In this document: positions 1,208-62,926 of the stretch, one piece after another
How the letters are laid out: the number at the start of each line of letters is the position of its first letter
Numbering within the stretch: the first letter of the stretch is position 1
Sequence record: PZ179880.1
DNA length: 64,000 nt
Direction: 5' to 3' (one strand)
Origin: a phage
Position numbers and translations under genes: made by a program
The notes under the pieces: model-generated
What the model saw: only the letters and a program-made list of their open reading frames with translations
Told to the model about the DNA's origin: nothing
Databases searched by the model: none

Positions 1208-1545
1208 TAGAACCTCATCTGAAAACCATGCGATTTAACATTACCACCACCAATGTCAGAAATGTTAATTTCACGCGCAATTGAAGGGTCAATGTCAATT
1301 TCACGGTTGAGTTTAGTGATAGCTAGAGTATCACGCCCATTTACAGTACGGAACTCTAAAGGGCAGACTACATTAACGTAGTTTTTAATCGATTCACTGG
1401 TAGGTTGCAAATGAGCAGGAAGGCCTTTAGGCGCCTTTGAGAAAACCACTTCACAGAAATTTTTGCGGGTATCAAAATAAGTAGTCATAAACATAGTATT
1501 TTCCTCAGTAAGGGGCCGAAGCCCCTGTTTTATTTTAAATATCAA
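1207..1545 (-). CDS. hypothetical protein (probable start at internal Met near 1500)
   Basis: ORF; GAGGAAAA Shine-Dalgarno precedes the internal ATG (MFMTTYF...); UUCG hairpin just upstream. Confidence 0.4.
   Translation of the reverse strand: MIFKIKQGLRPLTEENTMFMTTYFDTRKNFCEVVFSKAPKGLPAHLQPTSESIKNYVNVVCPLEFRTVNGRDTLAITKLNREIDIDPSIAREINISDIGGGNVKSHGFQMRF
1512..1525 (-). other. intercistronic UUCG-tetraloop hairpin
   Basis: GGGGC-UUCG-GCCCC 10 nt before SD of next ORF; T-run follows on plus strand. Confidence 0.45.
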
Positions 1546-1900
1546 ATTCGTTAAGAACTACATCAAAGATTGCTTCAAGATGCTCAGGTTTAGCTCTGTT
1601 ACTCAAAATATGACGAATCCAAGTTTTAACTAGAAGCTTACGATTGACGCCATTCCAGCAAGGATGAGTCCCTAAATCACGTTGACGAAAATCATCATCC
1701 AGAGCGATTTTGAAAGAAGAACCTTCTTTCGTGATTGAAACCGTGATGCCATTTTCAAATCGCATATAAACGTAGTTAGGAGTCATATACTGTTCAATTT
1801 CGCATACTGATCCATTTTGATGTTTCCAAAGGCAAATAGTATCAATAGAACCTGCAATACCGTTAGAAACATATTTACGTTCAAAGTTGATGTAGTTCAT
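1535..1900 (-). CDS. hypothetical protein (121 aa)
   Basis: ORF downstream of early promoter at ~1935-1966. Confidence 0.45.
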   Translation of the reverse strand: MNYINFERKYVSNGIAGSIDTICLWKHQNGSVCEIEQYMTPNYVYMRFENGITVSITKEGSSFKIALDDDFRQRDLGTHPCWNGVNRKLLVKTWIRHILSNRAKPEHLEAIFDVVLNEFDI

Positions 1901-1934
1901 TTTTATTCTCCAAGATGTTTAATTGCGGTACAGG

Positions 1935-1966
1935 TATATAATATCATATCCTGTACCAAAGTAAAC
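1935..1966 (-). promoter_or_regulatory. early promoter with stem-loop (PeSL-type)
   Basis: Minus-strand GTTTAC -35, 17-bp spacer, TATTAT; 8-bp inverted repeat GGTACAGG/CCTGTACC spans the -10. Confidence 0.5.
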
Positions 1967-1968
1967 AA

Positions 1969-2301
1969 TTATTTTACTACTTTCCAGTGCTGCATGTCAA
2001 GTTTGCCAACTTTTTTCATCTTCTCAATTAAGCGTTCTGCACGTTGGCGAGCTGTAACATAATACCATTCACCTAATTCATTTTGTTCAATTTTTCCAAC
2101 GATTACTGTATTCAATTCATAAATCCAACCAGTAAAGAAATTATGAACTTGGATTGTAAAGGTGAAATCTGTTCCCATACCTTCTGTTGTTTCTACTTCA
2201 ATAATATCACCTTCAACTGCCATTAAGAACCACATAGTTTCATCATATTTACCATTGAAGCATTTAGTTTTAACTGTAGCGTTCAGATTAATCGTTTTCA
2301 T
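1969..2301 (-). CDS. hypothetical protein (110 aa)
   Basis: ORF downstream of early promoter at ~2322-2358. Confidence 0.45.
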   Translation of the reverse strand: MKTINLNATVKTKCFNGKYDETMWFLMAVEGDIIEVETTEGMGTDFTFTIQVHNFFTGWIYELNTVIVGKIEQNELGEWYYVTARQRAERLIEKMKKVGKLDMQHWKVVK

Positions 2302-2321
2302 TTTATTCTCCTTTGTTTGTG

Positions 2322-2358
2322 TAAGATAATACTATCACAAAGGAACTATACTGTAAAC
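2322..2358 (-). promoter_or_regulatory. early promoter
   Basis: GTTTAC -35 and TAGTAT/TATTAT -10 on minus strand. Confidence 0.45.
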
Positions 2359-2382
2359 AACTTTGTGCAATCTTTGGAAAAT

Positions 2383-2406
2383 AAAAAAGGACTCCCGAAG
2401 GAGTCC
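2383..2406 (-). terminator. intrinsic terminator (UUCG tetraloop hairpin + U-run)
   Basis: mRNA GGACUCC-UUCG-GGAGUCC followed by UUUUUU; identical to 55795-55818. Confidence 0.65.
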
Positions 2407-2411
2407 TCAAC

Positions 2412-2588
2412 TTATGCTTTCTGCTTACCAAAACGAGAAGCATCATCTCGAAGAACCGCACGTGCTCGGCGCATGATCTTCTCAACAGTTTGATTGATAC
2501 GAGAGTTCGACCCACGCTTGTAACCAGCGCGTTTAGAATCACCAACTTTCTTTTCAACTGCTTTCTTTGCTTTAGCTTGTTTTGCCAT
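2412..2588 (-). CDS. small highly basic protein (58 aa from MAKQAK; ORF track extends to 2630)
   Basis: Lys/Arg-rich ORF followed by UUCG-hairpin terminator at 2383-2406. Confidence 0.4.
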   Translation of the reverse strand: MAKQAKAKKAVEKKVGDSKRAGYKRGSNSRINQTVEKIMRRARAVLRDDASRFGKQKA

Positions 2589-2827
2589 TATAAATTCTCT
2601 TTTAAATGAAAATGCAGGACTTATTGGCATTGCCTGCGAAAGCCCTCAAGGGGGTACTTAGGTTTTGAATATTTACCGACAGGATAACCATAAACCTCGT
2701 CAACATTCAAGAGGTACACCGTAAAACTGCCGGGGTCTTAAAACTATAATGATTCGCAAATCATTAATCAGACAGTTCGACGGCTCCTCGATTTTAGCTC
2801 ACACTAAGGCAGTGAATCTCCAATAAA

Positions 2828-19023: not shown

Positions 19024-19057
19024 GTTATTTTCCTCTTTAATCATCAGCAGTATTGCC

Positions 19058-19096
19058 GATAGTTGTATAGTACCATAGAAGAGCAAGGATGTAAAC
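19058..19096 (-). promoter_or_regulatory. early promoter cassette (PeSL-type), copy A
   Basis: GTTTAC -35, TGGTACTAT -10, conserved leader CAACTATC; ~80 bp near-identical to 35380-35448. Confidence 0.55.
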
Positions 19097-19120
19097 CATT
19101 TTGTGAAAAAATTTTGAAAT

Positions 19121-19149
19121 AAAAAAAAAGGGGGACCTCTAGGGTCCCC
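19121..19149 (-). terminator. intrinsic terminator downstream of gene 32
   Basis: GGGGACC/GGUCCCC stem followed by U9. Confidence 0.7.
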
Positions 19150-27439: not shown

Positions 27440-27444
27440 ACTGA

Positions 27445-27470
27445 GGGAGCCTTCGGGTTCCCTTTTTCTT
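27445..27470 (+). terminator. intrinsic terminator downstream of gene 35
   Basis: GGGAGCC-UUCG-GGUUCCC followed by UUUUUCUUU. Confidence 0.65.
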
Positions 27471-35347: not shown

Positions 35348-35379
35348 TTTCTAATCTCCGTAATTCTGTATCAGTAGTT

Positions 35380-35418
35380 GATAGTTGTATAGTACCACAG
35401 TATGCTTTGGTTGTAAAC
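35380..35418 (-). promoter_or_regulatory. early promoter cassette (PeSL-type), copy B, for motA
   Basis: GTTTAC -35, TGGTACTAT -10, conserved leader; A/T-rich UP region and terminator immediately upstream. Confidence 0.55.
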
Positions 35419-35442
35419 CGTTTTGTGAAAAAAATTTTGAAA

Positions 35443-35469
35443 TAAAAAAGGGAGAGCCGAGGCTCTCCC
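35443..35469 (-). terminator. intrinsic terminator downstream of gene 52 / small membrane ORF
   Basis: 9-bp stem GGGAGAGCC/GGCUCUCCC followed by UUUUUUAUUU. Confidence 0.7.
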
Positions 35470-37252: not shown

Positions 37253-37333
37253 TCACTGGCGTCCGAAGACGCCTTTAGTTTTAAGATTGTTACGATAGAA
37301 CTGCATCACGTGTTCGTTATGGAAATTACTCAT
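37253..37333 (-). CDS. stp: Stp peptide (activator of host PrrC anticodon nuclease / restriction alleviation)
   Basis: Hand-translated 26 aa [26 protein letters not shown], matching remembered T4 Stp. Confidence 0.8.
37262..37277 (-). other. UUCG-tetraloop hairpin within stp 3' coding region
   Basis: GGCGUC-UUCG-GACGCC encoding GVFGR, 6 nt before ac SD. Confidence 0.45.
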
Positions 37334-38498: not shown

Positions 38499-38524
38499 TT
38501 TCTGTTCCTCCGTAGTTGATAGGG

Positions 38525-38556
38525 TAATAATACCACAGAGGAACAGTCTTGTAAAC
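38525..38556 (-). promoter_or_regulatory. early promoter
   Basis: GTTTAC, 18 bp, TATTAT preceded by TGG. Confidence 0.45.
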
Positions 38557-38563
38557 AACTTTT

Positions 38564-38662
38564 TTAAAAATATTCGTAATAAATGTGAATGCCAATCACT
38601 ACTGCCGAAACTTGCGCAACCCACCATGCACAAGCAATAAGTACAGAATTCAAAATTTTCAT
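38564..38662 (-). CDS. small hydrophobic peptide (32 aa)
   Basis: Hand-translated MKILNSVLIACAWWVAQVSAVVIGIHIYYEYF. Confidence 0.35.
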   Translation of the reverse strand: MKILNSVLIACAWWVAQVSAVVIGIHIYYEYF

Positions 38663-39217: not shown

Positions 39218-39242
39218 TTTATTCTCCAAATCCGTATCAGTT

Positions 39243-39291
39243 GATAGTTGTATAGTACCACAGTCCTTGTGGTATGTAAACTGTTTTGTGA
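39243..39291 (-). promoter_or_regulatory. early promoter cassette (PeSL-type), copy C
   Basis: GTTTAC, TGGTACTAT, conserved leader CAACTATCAACTGATAC; 7-bp hairpin TACCACA/TGTGGTA. Confidence 0.5.
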
Positions 39292-39297
39292 AAATTT

Positions 39298-39855
39298 TTA
39301 AATGGAAAGATACCATCCGTTGTAGTTGCTTTTTCTTACAACCTTACGAAGGTCTTCTCTATCACCGATGAACTTCGGAGTGTACTGGATGACACCTGGA
39401 TGAATTTCTTTAGTGTTGAATATAATTATACAGTCAGCGACTTGATGATTTAGAATGGGCCCTAGATTTATTCCAGAACCGTATGGATACTCTCCGCTGC
39501 ATCCGGTTGTTACCGAAATCCAACGTGAGTCAGTTTGATGTGTTTTGACTTCTACACGAAGCCCGCAGTATTTTGGATGCGCCAGTACATCCCACGCATA
39601 TGTATACGGGTCATTAACATCCTCTTGGCCTTTGTTAACGTACCCGCTTAGCCAATCTGCTACAAAAAATTCTGCGTACACAGCGATACGACATCTTTCA
39701 ATAACTTCTGCTTTATCCTGATTAGGATTTTGTTTTAAAGAGTATCTTGCTGTATCAGCAATTTTGACCTTCATTTCACTAGTCAAATCATTGTTCGATA
39801 GGGTAAATGTCGGAATCTGAAATAGTCTCTGTAAACCCGGATTCGTTTTCTGCAT
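39298..39855 (-). CDS. denB: endonuclease IV (cytosine-DNA specific)
   Basis: 185 aa; synteny rIIB-denB-ndd. Confidence 0.75.
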   Translation of the reverse strand: MQKTNPGLQRLFQIPTFTLSNNDLTSEMKVKIADTARYSLKQNPNQDKAEVIERCRIAVYAEFFVADWLSGYVNKGQEDVNDPYTYAWDVLAHPKYCGLRVEVKTHQTDSRWISVTTGCSGEYPYGSGINLGPILNHQVADCIIIFNTKEIHPGVIQYTPKFIGDREDLRKVVRKSNYNGWYLSI

Positions 39856-40127: not shown

Positions 40128-40150
40128 AAAACAAAAGGGCCGAAGCCCTT
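40128..40150 (-). terminator. UUCG hairpin flanked by U-runs on both strands
   Basis: AAGGGC-UUCG-GCCCUU then UUUGUUUU on mRNA. Confidence 0.45.
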
Positions 40151-40153
40151 ATT

Positions 40154-40348
40154 TTATTTGAATTGTGCAATTCTTTTCTCTAAACAATCTGCGTAAGATT
40201 TCATTGAGATAAATTGTGAAAGCAACAGTTCTTGTTCAACTTCATTAATCGTTAGAAACTTTGTGCTTTCTAAAAATTTGCTCAGTGCATTAATTTTGAG
40301 CATTAATTGATCGTATTCTTCTTTTACTCGTGCTTGATAACCTAACAT
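40154..40348 (-). CDS. hypothetical protein (64 aa)
   Basis: ORF flanked by two UUCG hairpins. Confidence 0.45.
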   Translation of the reverse strand: MLGYQARVKEEYDQLMLKINALSKFLESTKFLTINEVEQELLLSQFISMKSYADCLEKRIAQFK

Positions 40349-40361
40349 AATTTTCCTTAGT

Positions 40362-40379
40362 TAAGGGCCGAAGCCCTTA
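40362..40379 (-). other. intercistronic UUCG-tetraloop hairpin at rIIB 3' end
   Basis: UAAGGGC-UUCG-GCCCUUA immediately before next gene's SD. Confidence 0.45.
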
Positions 40380-45642: not shown

Positions 45643-45656
45643 AAAGGCCCGAAGGC
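45643..45656 (-). other. UUCG-tetraloop hairpin upstream of gene 39
   Basis: GGCC-UUCG-GGCC overlapping lipoprotein ORF end; T-run on plus strand. Confidence 0.4.
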
Positions 45657-45659
45657 CTT

Positions 45660-45920
45660 TTATTTAAAACGGATAGTCGAATCCTTGAAGAATAGACCAG
45701 AACATACGGTTCCTTCTACTTTCTGCCCAGTAGGTCCAATAGCACGAAATCCAGTATGTTGGAAATCATTTTCAGAGCAACCGAACCAATTGTATCCAGT
45801 GATTTCAATATTAGTAAAACCGCTTGAAGACAAAACTTTGGTTGCGTTATCAGCATCAGTACATCCTACTAAAGATACTGCTAATACTAATGCCGCGATA
45901 GAACGATTAACATATTTCAT
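45660..45920 (-). CDS. putative lipoprotein
   Basis: Signal peptide with lipobox LVGC; start taken at ATG 45918-45920. Confidence 0.5.
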   Translation of the reverse strand: MKYVNRSIAALVLAVSLVGCTDADNATKVLSSSGFTNIEITGYNWFGCSENDFQHTGFRAIGPTGQKVEGTVCSGLFFKDSTIRFK

Positions 45921-46976: not shown

Positions 46977-47063
46977 AAGTTGTTTTCTGTATCAGTAGTT
47001 GATATTGATATAGTACCATAATCAACTACTGATGTATATAGTTTTATGAAAAAATTTTAAACT
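46977..47063 (-). promoter_or_regulatory. promoter-like element with perfect 13-bp inverted repeat flanking the -10
   Basis: ATCAGTAGTTGAT (46981-46993) and ATCAACTACTGAT (47011-47023) flank TGGTACTAT; A/T-rich UP region upstream. Confidence 0.4.
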
Positions 47064-54709: not shown

Positions 54710-55181
54710 TTGTTTTACCTAAAACAACAGTAGGAGCATCGTCAAATTCATGAATTTTTAGCAAATTTGGATGTAAACTATTCCATACAGAAGAAATAAA
54801 ATATGATAAAGCATCTTCACTCGCAATTATAAATTTGTTTCCTTTATCTATTTTCCAGTTATATAATGAATCGTACGAATAGAAAGATAAAGGTTTATCA
54901 TTATATTGTTCTGCGCTAACATTAATGTATTCGGATTTAGTAAATGCTTCAATTGCTCTAAATGGAATATTTGGTACAGTTTCAATAATTCCGATCTTTT
55001 TAAGTTTTATTTCAGCATCTTCTGGAACTGGCATTGAAACGAAATTTTCTACGAGATACATTGGGTCACAATAACCCTTATCAATCATTACTGCTACGGT
55101 AATTGGAACATCTTTAGCAAATGACATGCTATTACTGCTAATATACATTTCAAACAAAATCGCTTCCATAATTTTCCTCAA
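54684..55181 (-). CDS. hypothetical protein (165 aa)
   Basis: ORF. Confidence 0.45.
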
Positions 55182-55561
55182 TCACAAGATGTAGATGAAC
55201 AACTAGAATCACAAGAACTTCCACATGAATCGCCCGTCCACACATGAACAGGAACATTAGTATCATATGAATCAGAACTAGACTGTGTATTCTGCGTATT
55301 AGATGATGTAGGTGTTGACCAACGCCAAGGATTTTTATAATATTCCTGGGCTTCTTCATAAGTCATAGTAACTGCTTCTACTGTTCCATCTCCCATATAA
55401 ACATATTCAACTACAGTTAAAGGAAGGTAGTCATTTGAAATAGGAACTACACCTTCTCCGGGAGTTGTAGAGAAAAAATCCGTAAAGAAACTTTTAAACC
55501 AATTAAAGATAAACATTACAAAAAGCCTCTTTGAAATTCGACTCTTTGAAATCCACCCCAA
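55178..55561 (-). CDS. hypothetical protein with hydrophobic N-terminus and Ser/Cys-rich C-terminal tail
   Basis: 127 aa; C-terminus ...[20 protein letters not shown]. Confidence 0.45.
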
Positions 55562-55728
55562 TCAGTGTATCGCATTTCAGCATTGAACTCGACTGAACCA
55601 TCTGCATGCATCATGAATGAATGCGTGACGATATCACAATCCCAGCTTTTCATACCCCATTTATCAGAGATAGCTTTATCAAGAACCTTCTGGAGGTCTT
55701 CATTTGGTTTAATCCAGCGATTTAACAT
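55516..55728 (-). CDS. hypothetical protein (70 aa)
   Basis: ORF. Confidence 0.4.
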   Translation of the reverse strand: MLNRWIKPNEDLQKVLDKAISDKWGMKSWDCDIVTHSFMMHADGSVEFNAEMRYTDWGGFQRVEFQRGFL

Positions 55729-55749
55729 AGTGCTCTCCTCTATAAGATA

Positions 55750-55784
55750 ATTTTATTATACCATACTCATTTTGGAAAGTAAAC
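55750..55784 (-). promoter_or_regulatory. early promoter
   Basis: GTTTAC and TGGTATAAT on minus strand, just downstream of soc terminator. Confidence 0.4.
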
Positions 55785-55794
55785 CGGTAAAATG

Positions 55795-55818
55795 AAAAAA
55801 GGACTCCCGAAGGAGTCC
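55795..55818 (-). terminator. intrinsic terminator downstream of soc
   Basis: Same GGACUCC-UUCG-GGAGUCC hairpin + U6. Confidence 0.65.
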
Positions 55819-55824
55819 TTGAAT

Positions 55825-56070
55825 TTATTCACCAGTTACTTTCCACAAATCTTCGTTTGCAGTAATCCATTCAGTACGTTGATTTTCTTCATATACTGTA
55901 GAATATGCTGCTTTTTCTGAAGGGAATATCTGATAATGAGCGCCAGAAATTTTGTGAACGTCAGAATAAAGAGGGAAAGCTACAGAAATTTCCTTTCCTT
56001 CAATTTTCTTATTTCCATCTAATTTTTGCTCAAATGTTTTAATATTAACATAACCGCGAGTACTAGCCAT
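55825..56070 (-). CDS. soc: small outer capsid protein Soc
   Basis: 81 aa; late promoter TATAAATA 30 nt upstream; terminator downstream. Confidence 0.85.
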   Translation of the reverse strand: MASTRGYVNIKTFEQKLDGNKKIEGKEISVAFPLYSDVHKISGAHYQIFPSEKAAYSTVYEENQRTEWITANEDLWKVTGE

Positions 56071-56085
56071 GTAATTCTCCTTTAT

Positions 56086-56295
56086 TTAAATTACATGACT
56101 ATTTATAATAAATTCTTGTGGAACGTTAAAATACCCAATTTTAGTTAATATAACAACATCACCGTTAATAATTACCGGAGAATAATCGGCTGGAGCATTA
56201 AACTTCCAATGAGCTCTAATATTATATCCATCAGAACCAAATGCTCAACTAGCCGGTCTCCCGGCTTTTTGCCATGCATAAAAATCAAATTTCAT
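56086..56295 (-). pseudogene. 70-codon frame interrupted by in-frame TGA (codon 17)
   Basis: ATG at 56293-56295 overlaps upstream stop (ATGA); TGA at 56245-56247; frame continues 52 codons to TAA at 56086-56088. Confidence 0.4.
56100..56107 (-). promoter_or_regulatory. late promoter TATAAATA for soc
   Basis: Reverse complement is TATAAATA, 30 nt upstream of soc ATG. Confidence 0.65.
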
Positions 56296-56492
56296 TTTGA
56301 ATGCTCTATAATTAATTTTAAGGCTTCTTCATGCACCTTACCTAATTGTATATGTCCAGTTTTAATTGTGTAAGCTTTGTGGAGCTGATTAGATAGGAGC
56401 TCGTATGTGAGCTCCTTGTCATAATTTTTAAATAGCTGGTCAATACGTTTCTTGTGGGCTTTCTTAAGTTGACGTTTATTTAAACGAGCCAT
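56292..56492 (-). CDS. hypothetical basic protein (66 aa)
   Basis: ORF abutting gene 56 stop. Confidence 0.45.
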   Translation of the reverse strand: MARLNKRQLKKAHKKRIDQLFKNYDKELTYELLSNQLHKAYTIKTGHIQLGKVHEEALKLIIEHSK

Positions 56493-57010
56493 TAATAACC
56501 TCGGTCTTGACGAGCGAAGTTTTCAGCATTTTTCAGATAATAAAGTTTAAAGATTTCTTCAGCCGTAAGACCGAGACCTTGGAACATGTTCAGAACGAAA
56601 TGAAGAATATCAATCATTTCGAATTTAATTTCCAACTGGTCTTGTGGAGACAAATCAGTAATCAGAGTTTCACGTCGTTCACCATGTTGAGCTTTCCAAG
56701 GCTTCCATACAGCAGATGCATCTTTTTCACCATTGCTCATACCACCAAGAGAAGTCAATAGTTCGCGGAATTCATCATCAATATAATCTTTCTGATTACG
56801 CAGCCAATCAACAACTTCACCCGCAGTAGCCAAATCATCAGGATGACGGTTATATTCAGGTTTATCTTTAGCTAAACGAACCTGTAGAGATTTCTGCATA
56901 TCAAGCATAACCTGCAGCGGGTCTTTTTCATCACCGAGAATATCCCAGTATTCATTTTGAGCTTTATCAGCGCCTTCGATCAGTTGACTACATTCGTTAA
57001 AGTAAGCCAT
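56492..57010 (-). CDS. 56: dCTP pyrophosphatase gp56 (MazG-like)
   Basis: 171 aa from MAYFNECSQ; middle promoter upstream. Confidence 0.85.
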   Translation of the reverse strand: MAYFNECSQLIEGADKAQNEYWDILGDEKDPLQVMLDMQKSLQVRLAKDKPEYNRHPDDLATAGEVVDWLRNQKDYIDDEFRELLTSLGGMSNGEKDASAVWKPWKAQHGERRETLITDLSPQDQLEIKFEMIDILHFVLNMFQGLGLTAEEIFKLYYLKNAENFARQDRGY

Positions 57011-62563: not shown

Positions 62564-62926
62564 TTAAAAGAATTTAAATTTTTTCTTTGACCTTTTATTA
62601 AATGCATCTTGCAGTTGCATTGTAATACATTTTTCTACATGAGGAGCTAACTCAGCTTTTCTTTCTTGGTCAAGAACAGCAAAGTCCATTACGACTTTTC
62701 CATCAACCCAATCTAATTTTGTCACATACACAATGTGTGTAGAACCATCTTCTAGTTTAATGACAATCTCCTGGATAACATTTTCCATAGCAGATTTAAT
62801 TATCTTAAGAGATTCATTAAAAAGACGTTCTTTTCTTTCTTCTTCCCCCTCCGAAGAGGGGGATTCGTCGATAATTTCTAGATCTAAATCTAAATCATCT
62901 TTATTCATTAAATTCTTCCATATCAC
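62564..62926 (-). CDS. 40: gp40 head-assembly accessory protein
   Basis: 120-aa ORF between uvsX and 41. Confidence 0.5.
   Translation of the reverse strand: MIWKNLMNKDDLDLDLEIIDESPSSEGEEERKERLFNESLKIIKSAMENVIQEIVIKLEDGSTHIVYVTKLDWVDGKVVMDFAVLDQERKAELAPHVEKCITMQLQDAFNKRSKKKFKFF

Follow-up and report, generated by a model that had tools for sequence, protein, structure and literature searches.

C(UUCG)G hairpins in the intercistronic regions of phage T4 are said to be a classic finding of Tuerk et al. in 1988 (PNAS 85:1364). T4 terminators consist of a GC-rich stem, a 4-nt loop, and a poly(U) run, and many of them were identified computationally (PMC2988022). Terminators and early promoters also occur together in T4-type phages, in composites named promoter-early stem-loops, or PeSLs (Arbiol et al., 2010, PMC2839356; Comeau et al., 2014, PMC4122927). 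PeSLs of phages RB49 and phi1 have been shown to terminate transcription, to promote it, and to recombine into mini-circles (PMC2839356). The T4/PST PeSL consensus is a stem AGNA-loop-TCNT and a promoter TTTACW-N17-TAYWAT (PMC4122927). For soc, a review mentions that the 3' end of the transcript was examined for poly(A), giving no coordinates (PMC3014915), and our literature search found no T4 study of the transcript 3'-end mapping or Term-seq type. In the literature searched, we likewise found no statement that the T4 terminators after gene 30.9 and soc match each other.

Here we analysed a stretch of 64,000 nt of phage DNA (the window), which is Tequatrovirus and shares 98-100% identity with many T4-like coliphages. 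The 25-mer AAAAAAGGACTCCCGAAGGAGTCCT occurs in the window as two exact copies, given on the + strand as 2383-2407 and 55795-55819. An earlier note on this DNA had described a verbatim repeat; there are indeed exactly two copies, but the ends that it gave (2406 and 55818) fall one base short. We found no third match in the window with up to 3 mismatches allowed, and none of 100 dinucleotide-preserving shuffles of the window produced a match. In repeat family D7 the two copies are similar over 28 of 30 bases, and an alignment shows that the similarity then ends. Reference T4 (NC_000866) carries the same 25-mer at both homologous sites. Both sites are annotated as 'terminator' in the GenBank record of phage e11/2 (KJ668714.2), as is the equivalent of the first site in the NBG2 record (MH243439.1). 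We consider it very probable that the two hairpins encoded here are the counterparts of the phage T4 Rho-independent terminators after 30.9 and soc, lying in PeSL-type cassettes and belonging to one reused stem-loop family. The observation holds but is unremarkable, both elements being essentially already known.

Read on the minus strand, both copies have the form (A/G)AGGACUCC-UUCG-GGAGUCCUU followed by a U-run, with the loop closed by a C-G pair. The predicted elements are as follows.

2387-2408, minus strand: predicted terminator hairpin 1, GAGGACUCC-UUCG-GGAGUCCUU, with 9 pairs, the outermost being G.U, and the loop at 2396-2399.

2378-2388, minus strand: U-tract of predicted terminator 1, with U6 at 2383-2388, then A, then U4 (from the sequence and a terminator scan).

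55799-55820, minus strand: predicted terminator hairpin 2, AAGGACUCC-UUCG-GGAGUCCUU, with 9 Watson-Crick pairs and the loop at 55808-55811.

55795-55800, minus strand: U6 tract of predicted terminator 2, its first two U paired in the stem base (from the sequence and a terminator scan).

This anatomy is that of an intrinsic terminator at both sites, with 9 pairs including 5 G-C, a 4-nt loop, and a U6 that overlaps the base of the stem on the minus strand; the first two U of the tract at 2383-2388 are also paired within the stem base. On the + strand of site 1, the terminator scan found no comparable U-run 3' of the stem. In a 56-nt context, hairpin 1 folded at -17.7 kcal/mol (z = -3.7) and hairpin 2 at -26.1 kcal/mol (z = -6.3), each better than all 200 of 200 shuffles. 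The minus-strand hairpin plus U6 that had been proposed at both copies is therefore present at each, as a 9-pair stem with a C-G-closed UUCG loop and a U6. The likeness to the C(UUCG)G terminators of T4 covers the GC-rich stem, the C-G-closed UUCG loop, the U-run, the intercistronic position, and the coding strand, and the differences amount to nothing material, these being the same elements in a close T4 relative. The hairpins also share their loop, closing pair, and outer GGAC...GUCC arms with GGAC(UUCG)GUCC, reportedly the NMR model hairpin of Cheong, Varani and Tinoco (1990), but have 3 extra pairs (UCC/GGA) between these arms and the loop.

At hairpin 2, the minus-strand fold across 55782-55837 adds a further helix, in which the last soc codons (AACUGGUGAA) form 10 pairs with the stretch immediately ahead of the -35 hexamer (UUUACCGGUU). 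This outer helix is possible only in read-through RNA and is kept only partly in T4. It is probably a chance pairing, since relatives with a different Soc C-terminus or an altered downstream spacer do not have AACUGGUGAA pairing with UUUACCGGUU, and we rejected it as a part of the element.

The genes and putative promoters around the two hairpins are all on the minus strand.

2412-2630, minus strand: gene 30.9-like ORF, 72 aa; its stop codon (2412-2414) precedes hairpin 1 by 3 nt.

2329-2358, minus strand: putative T4 early-type promoter of gene 30.8, with G-TTTACA (-35, 2352-2358), a 17-nt spacer, and a TG-extended TAGTAT (-10, 2329-2334).

1969-2301, minus strand: gene 30.8-like ORF, 110 aa, first gene of the next transcription unit after predicted terminator 1.

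56100-56107, minus strand: late-promoter motif TATAAATA upstream of soc, from the upstream sequence.

55825-56070, minus strand: soc, small outer capsid protein, 81 aa, with its stop codon at 55825-55827, 4 nt before hairpin 2 (from its translation and T4 annotation).

55755-55784, minus strand: putative T4 early-type promoter of the mrh.2-like gene, with G-TTTACT (-35, 55778-55784), a 17-nt spacer, and a TG-extended TATAAT (-10, 55755-55760).

55516-55728, minus strand: mrh.2-like ORF, 70 aa, first gene past predicted terminator 2.

Each hairpin lies downstream of a gene and on the strand of that gene, the location expected of a terminator. The 72-aa ORF at 2412-2630 sits where T4 has gene 30.9, between rIII on its upstream side and 30.8 on its downstream side, with homologous loci found; hairpin 1 adjoins this 30.9-like ORF and not rIII. 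The second copy had been placed directly after soc, and it does start 4 nt past the soc stop codon. With a late-promoter motif upstream of soc, terminator 2 should end both late and early read-through transcripts. The interval between soc and gene 56 (window 56071-56492) contains a 66-aa ORF (56292-56492); in reference T4, this place is taken by the homing-endonuclease gene segF. Positions 55000-57000 are 100% identical to phage a51 (OQ067376.1). Overall, the window is a mosaic relative to OQ067376.1, in which the coordinate offset shifts over a dozen times and exact 25-mer matches are missing from long stretches; for this reason, a51 gene names were not transferred and ORF context was computed directly.

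Both intergenic spaces show the PeSL layout, in which a stem-loop, a sigma-70-like early promoter, a Shine-Dalgarno sequence, and an ATG share one space. The order at site 1 is the hairpin, 24 nt, TTTACA-17-TAGTAT, GGAG, and the ATG of 30.8; at site 2 it is the hairpin, 10 nt, TTTACT-17-TATAAT, GAGGAG, and the ATG of mrh.2. The stem AGGA...TCCT fits the T4/PST consensus at both sites, and the promoter of site 2 matches that consensus in full against one mismatch in the -10 (TAGTAT) of site 1 (PMC4122927). The promoter parts of both sites align with the early-promoter repeat family of the window, with which the putative 30.8 promoter has the CACAAA..GTTTAC and TATC elements in common. Promoter function at 2329-2358 and 55755-55784 is a prediction from motifs. 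Like PeSLs, the cassettes are repeated round the genome, as repeat families D1, D4, D7, and D13 of the window, and their promoter parts align across 7 cassettes. They also adjoin an indel in a relative: compared with window positions 1537-2305, the contig IMGVR_UViG_2974742932_000001 is missing 30.8 and 30.7 (769 bp), and the junction (1818-1826 of its locus) has the early promoter that comes after terminator 1 on one side and the 1511-1526 UUCG hairpin on the other. Two differences from the described PeSLs stand out. The recombining cassettes of RB49 and phi1 lie a few hundred bases apart, whereas the window copies are 53 kb apart, so that recombination between them would delete essential genes. 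Furthermore, the two sites of the window share their hairpin while their promoter parts differ.

The working that we infer from this layout, comprising termination, RNA stabilisation, promoter activity, and a copying mechanism, would be as follows. As host RNA polymerase moves along the minus strand, the emerging RNA would fold into a G+C-rich stem of 8-9 bp with a very stable C(UUCG)G cap, and the U6 after the stem would leave a weak RNA-DNA hybrid from which the transcript is released. The hairpin, now at the RNA 3' end, may shield the upstream message (soc or 30.9) from 3' exonucleases. Within 10-25 nt, each terminator gives way to an early-type promoter, and then to a Shine-Dalgarno sequence and the following gene, so that the whole would act as a terminator-promoter insulator cassette of the PeSL kind. 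The family (A/G)GGACUCC-UNCG-GGAGUCC(U/C) is reused at several sites per T4-like genome, and the two hairpins would be identical because both are members of it. Selection on a good terminator, along with occasional recombinational copying or replacement between dispersed copies, could then keep the family alike.

To follow both elements at orthologous sites, we used loci of relatives that encode Soc and gp30.9 homologues. Variants were read from loop-anchored sequences, and pair counting in MAFFT alignments was abandoned, because MAFFT shifted alternative stems by one column. At the soc site, (A/G)GGACUCC-UUCG-GGAGUCC(U/C) with its U-run is kept even where Soc is only 50-63% identical. Variation at this site takes the form of a compensatory GGAAUCC/GGAUUCC in two contigs, a different and fully paired stem in one contig (GGGAACC-CUUGU-GGUUCCC), and a loop flipped to CGAA in one contig. 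At the 30.9 site, relatives have the same core stem with UUCG, UACG, UAUG, or AUAU loops, or else replacement stems (GGGAACC-CUAGU-GGUUCCC or GGGAGAC-UUCG-GUCUCCC). Compensatory changes thus occur, and pairing and the U-run are retained in every variant at the soc and 30.9 sites, which supports an RNA hairpin terminator. The variants also indicate that a small set of hairpin families displace each other at fixed sites. Taking anatomy, conservation, and public annotation together, the reading of both hairpins as terminators is well supported, as a prediction from sequence.

Two of the relatives have a CGAA loop on the transcribed strand in a hairpin that is otherwise identical, one at the soc site (IMGVR_UViG_2974573174_000001, at about 1744 of the extracted locus) and the other at the 30.9 site (IMGVR_UViG_2706796299_000001, at about 131.87 kb). 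Loop flips of this kind are the expected product of strand switching at a perfect palindrome. That they occur at different sites in two related genomes suggests recurrent palindrome-mediated loop inversion, and the flip should weaken the hairpin. In several other genera, at the soc site and other loci of RB69-like and related contigs, the U-run of the hairpin reads directly into TTTTTTGCTTTTAAA or TTTTTTGCTTTCTA, and a -10-like TATAAT or TAGAAT follows ~12 nt beyond. This fusion looks like a MotA-box (TGCTT) middle promoter joined to a terminator, the 'PmSL' type described for phage nt-1.

We next consider how widely the stem is used. In a complete scan, the exact 18-mer GGACTCCTTCGGGAGTCC was present in 105 IMG/VR stretches, with 1-4 copies per genome of T4-like size. 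The positions of these copies recur, namely the soc and 30.9 sites, one near 2.7 kb, and a few more. A complete contig of 167,948 bp that is close to the window has exactly two copies. The ORFs ending just upstream of the hairpin fall into at least 19 unrelated protein clusters, among them gp23-like capsid proteins in environmental (marine-looking) contigs. A 36-mer query of the GenBank phage collection returned 1920 places in 1148 records; among the records listed, most of those of Tequatrovirus have 2 places, a T4 record having 2 and a T2 record 1. The hairpin also occurs in unrelated phages (Felixounavirus, Mooglevirus), and some of those records annotate it as 'terminator'. As a control we scanned for the arms-swapped hairpin GGAGTCCTTCGGGACTCC (GGAGUCC-UUCG-GGACUCC), which occurs in at least 120 stretches against 105 for the real one, and a degenerate scan in which both inner pairs were varied recovered 12 of the 16 possible paired combinations, with similar frequencies in the samples. 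These two results argue against a uniquely favoured stem, a reading that we rejected. Viral contigs contain close variants at comparable rates, with the central pair swapped or with GC/GC, GG/CC, or GA/TC as inner pairs. Viewed across all viruses, then, the (A/G)GGACUCC stem is one among many; in enterobacterial T4-like phages, it is clearly over-represented.

These distributions bear on why the two hairpins are identical. The earlier note had called them duplicated or convergently fixed, and this alternative fits the evidence, but a recent segmental duplication is out, given that the identity in the intergenic alignment is confined to the hairpin and U6, and that promoter spacing differs. Nor is the sequence unique, since this hairpin recurs at many sites and also in phages that are unrelated. 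The distance from hairpin to -35 hexamer differs in that alignment (24 nt against 10 nt), and the A/T-rich CACAAA segment is missing at site 2; because the promoters differ in spacing and in this upstream A/T-rich part, the whole cassette was not copied between the sites. We lean towards a dispersed family that is maintained by selection with occasional copying.

Pure convergence, in which two terminators arose independently and were driven to the same sequence because selection in an A+T-rich genome favoured a UUCG terminator that is strong and does not slip, is a serious possibility, if not the reading that we prefer. The arms-swapped hairpin, the other GGA-NN-CC stems, and the occurrence in unrelated phages mean that convergence could explain the identity without copying, and the 18-mer with its U-run does follow genes of all those unrelated protein families. 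A rough upper bound, estimated from the stems in the fetched loci, gives up to about 0.5 identical stem pairs by chance among 9 UUCG hairpins, and the window has two such pairs. Against convergence, however, six other UUCG stem sequences are used in the window, so no single stem is required, and the 3-4 copies of one stem per genome seen in relatives are not predicted by the broad distribution of stems. Moreover, the identity takes in the pair below the core stem and the U6 as well. That eighth pair co-varies between copies within genomes, being uniformly A-U or uniformly G-C in 15 multi-copy genomes and mixed in 3-4, a concordance that represents only about five independent clades. Together with the CGAA flips, it gives a hint of DNA-level exchange between copies.

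Direct copying between these two loci, by duplication or gene conversion in the T4 lineage, appears rather unlikely. In its favour are the exact 25-mer (28 of 30 with flanks) and the state of the eighth pair at the 30.9 site: among the loci compared, T4-type contigs alone have A-U there, as they do at their soc site, and other lineages with the same stem have G-C. The CGAA flips at either site in relatives further indicate that DNA-level palindrome events do occur there, and recombination between such cassettes is documented in RB49 and phi1 (PMC2839356). Yet the identity does not reach past the functional element: promoter spacing differs, and so does the sequence lying 5' of the stem. T4 and most of the listed Tequatrovirus records already have the pair, so any event must be old, and the same core stem stands at both sites in lineages whose Soc is only 50-60% identical, which means that the similarity predates the T4 lineage.

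A more far-reaching proposal is that the hairpin is an actively homogenised and movable unit, in which copies convert each other, families displace one another at fixed sites, possibly a stem-recognising factor takes part, and the result is a small dispersed-repeat system shaping genome plasticity. Mutual conversion of copies would explain both the concordant eighth pair and the recurrent CGAA flips, the latter through palindrome-mediated strand switching, but we regard the proposal as a whole as improbable. The REP/BIME elements of enterobacteria are an instructive comparison, being dispersed intergenic palindromes that can stabilise upstream mRNA and serve as recombination substrates. They resemble the window hairpins in being short palindromic units repeated between genes; unlike these, REP units are longer and imperfect, lack a tetraloop and U-tract, exist in hundreds of copies, and have a dedicated transposase, none of which holds for the window hairpins.

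The two hairpins belong to a larger set of UUCG hairpins. With a stem of at least 6 pairs, C(UUCG)G hairpins number 10 in the window against a mean of 0.085 (maximum 1) in 200 dinucleotide shuffles. The six further hairpins that had been listed earlier are all present (1511-1526, 27443-27464, 37258-37273, 40135-40150, 40362-40379, and 45643-45660), the one at 27443-27464 being on the + strand, and we found an additional one at 62844-62863 on the minus strand, within the start of a 114-aa ORF call. Eight of the nine strong UUCG hairpins lie between ORFs, and all nine read UUCG rather than CGAA on the strand of the local genes. The suggestion that UUCG is the dominant intercistronic structure is right in so far as this is the commonest strong class, at 9 of about 25 loci, but it makes up no majority; other strong terminators of the window have GCAA, UCAG, CUAGA, or CUCG loops. 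Only four of the nine have a U-tract (those starting at 2387, 27443, 40135, and 55799), and two of these are predicted terminators outside the identical pair.

27443-27464, plus strand: UUCG terminator, predicted, between tail-fibre genes 35 and 36, GAGGGAGCC-UUCG-GGUUCCCUU with a U-run.

40135-40150, minus strand: UUCG terminator, predicted, of a second hairpin family, AAGGGC-UUCG-GCCCUU with a U-rich tail, in repeat family D4.

The terminator between genes 35 and 36 was predicted in all 6 of 6 genomes in a published comparison (PMC1524935). The five C(UUCG)G hairpins that have no U-tract are all on the minus strand (1511-1526, 37258-37273, 40362-40379, 45643-45660, and 62844-62863), and within a few bases each is followed by a Shine-Dalgarno-like or A/G-rich sequence (GAGGAA, AAGGAA, AGAAGAAAG). 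Because a ribosome-binding site or A/G-rich sequence comes directly after them, these five are intercistronic hairpins and not canonical terminators; they look like stabilising or processing hairpins. Terminators make up only a part of the UUCG hairpins of this genome. Another pair of identical hairpins, AAGGGCUUCGGCCCUU, is found at 40135-40150 and 40363-40378 on the minus strand, with a near-copy at 1511-1526. This pair brackets a single 64-aa ORF (40154-40348), with 228 nt between the copies. Its similarity reaches into the preceding stop-codon context (family D4, 85-92%), and the U-rich tail is on the downstream copy only, a layout which is that of the reported RB49 PeSL mini-circles.

The weakest of the alternatives, which we judge very unlikely, is that the two hairpins are mainly something other than terminators, whether RNA processing or stability elements, sites for sequence-specific factors (e.g. 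RegB, for the GGAG in the 3' arm), or DNA-level cruciform or recombination sites: the five of nine hairpins without a U-tract do imply non-terminator roles of UUCG hairpins in this genome, the stem sequence itself is conserved beyond pairing in distant relatives, and the PeSL authors speculated on a DNA-binding protein that recognises the stem-loops (PMC2839356), but both copies have U6 directly after the stem and come right after stop codons, whole-stem replacements keep pairing and U-run and not sequence, which a sequence-specific factor does not predict, a RegB site was rejected on the report that GGAG within stable, often UUCG-capped stem-loops, terminators included, resisted RegB (PMC1702504), and there is no Rfam family at the curated threshold. 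Across the whole window, Rfam gave no match at the gathering score, and below that score matches were confined to the terminator ends of unrelated sRNAs.

Further repeats in the window concern the promoter part of such cassettes. A dispersed repeat of 74 nt has five copies with 62-77% identity (19042-19115, 35364-35437, 38502-38575, 39227-39300, and 46985-47058) and corresponds to the T4 early-promoter consensus, with an A/T-rich part, GTTTAC, and GGTACTATAC. An exact 21-nt repeat (19106-19126 and 35429-35449) joins this 74-nt repeat to terminators of two kinds, namely GGGGACC-CUAGA-GGUCCCC, which follows gene 32, and AGGGAGAGC-CUCG-GCUCUCCCU, which precedes motA, so that one promoter module is paired with different hairpins.

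The counterparts of the T4 terminators after 30.9 and soc mark transcription-unit boundaries and so help annotation. As a discovery their value is small, this being well-understood regulatory punctuation of a model phage, with the same pair in reference T4. More broadly, a small number of hairpin and promoter modules are used repeatedly by T4-like phages, which fits the published idea of cassettes that help to shuffle accessory genes. If copying between dispersed hairpins were demonstrated, it would be a concrete, small-scale case, from a virulent phage, of regulatory elements evolving in concert.
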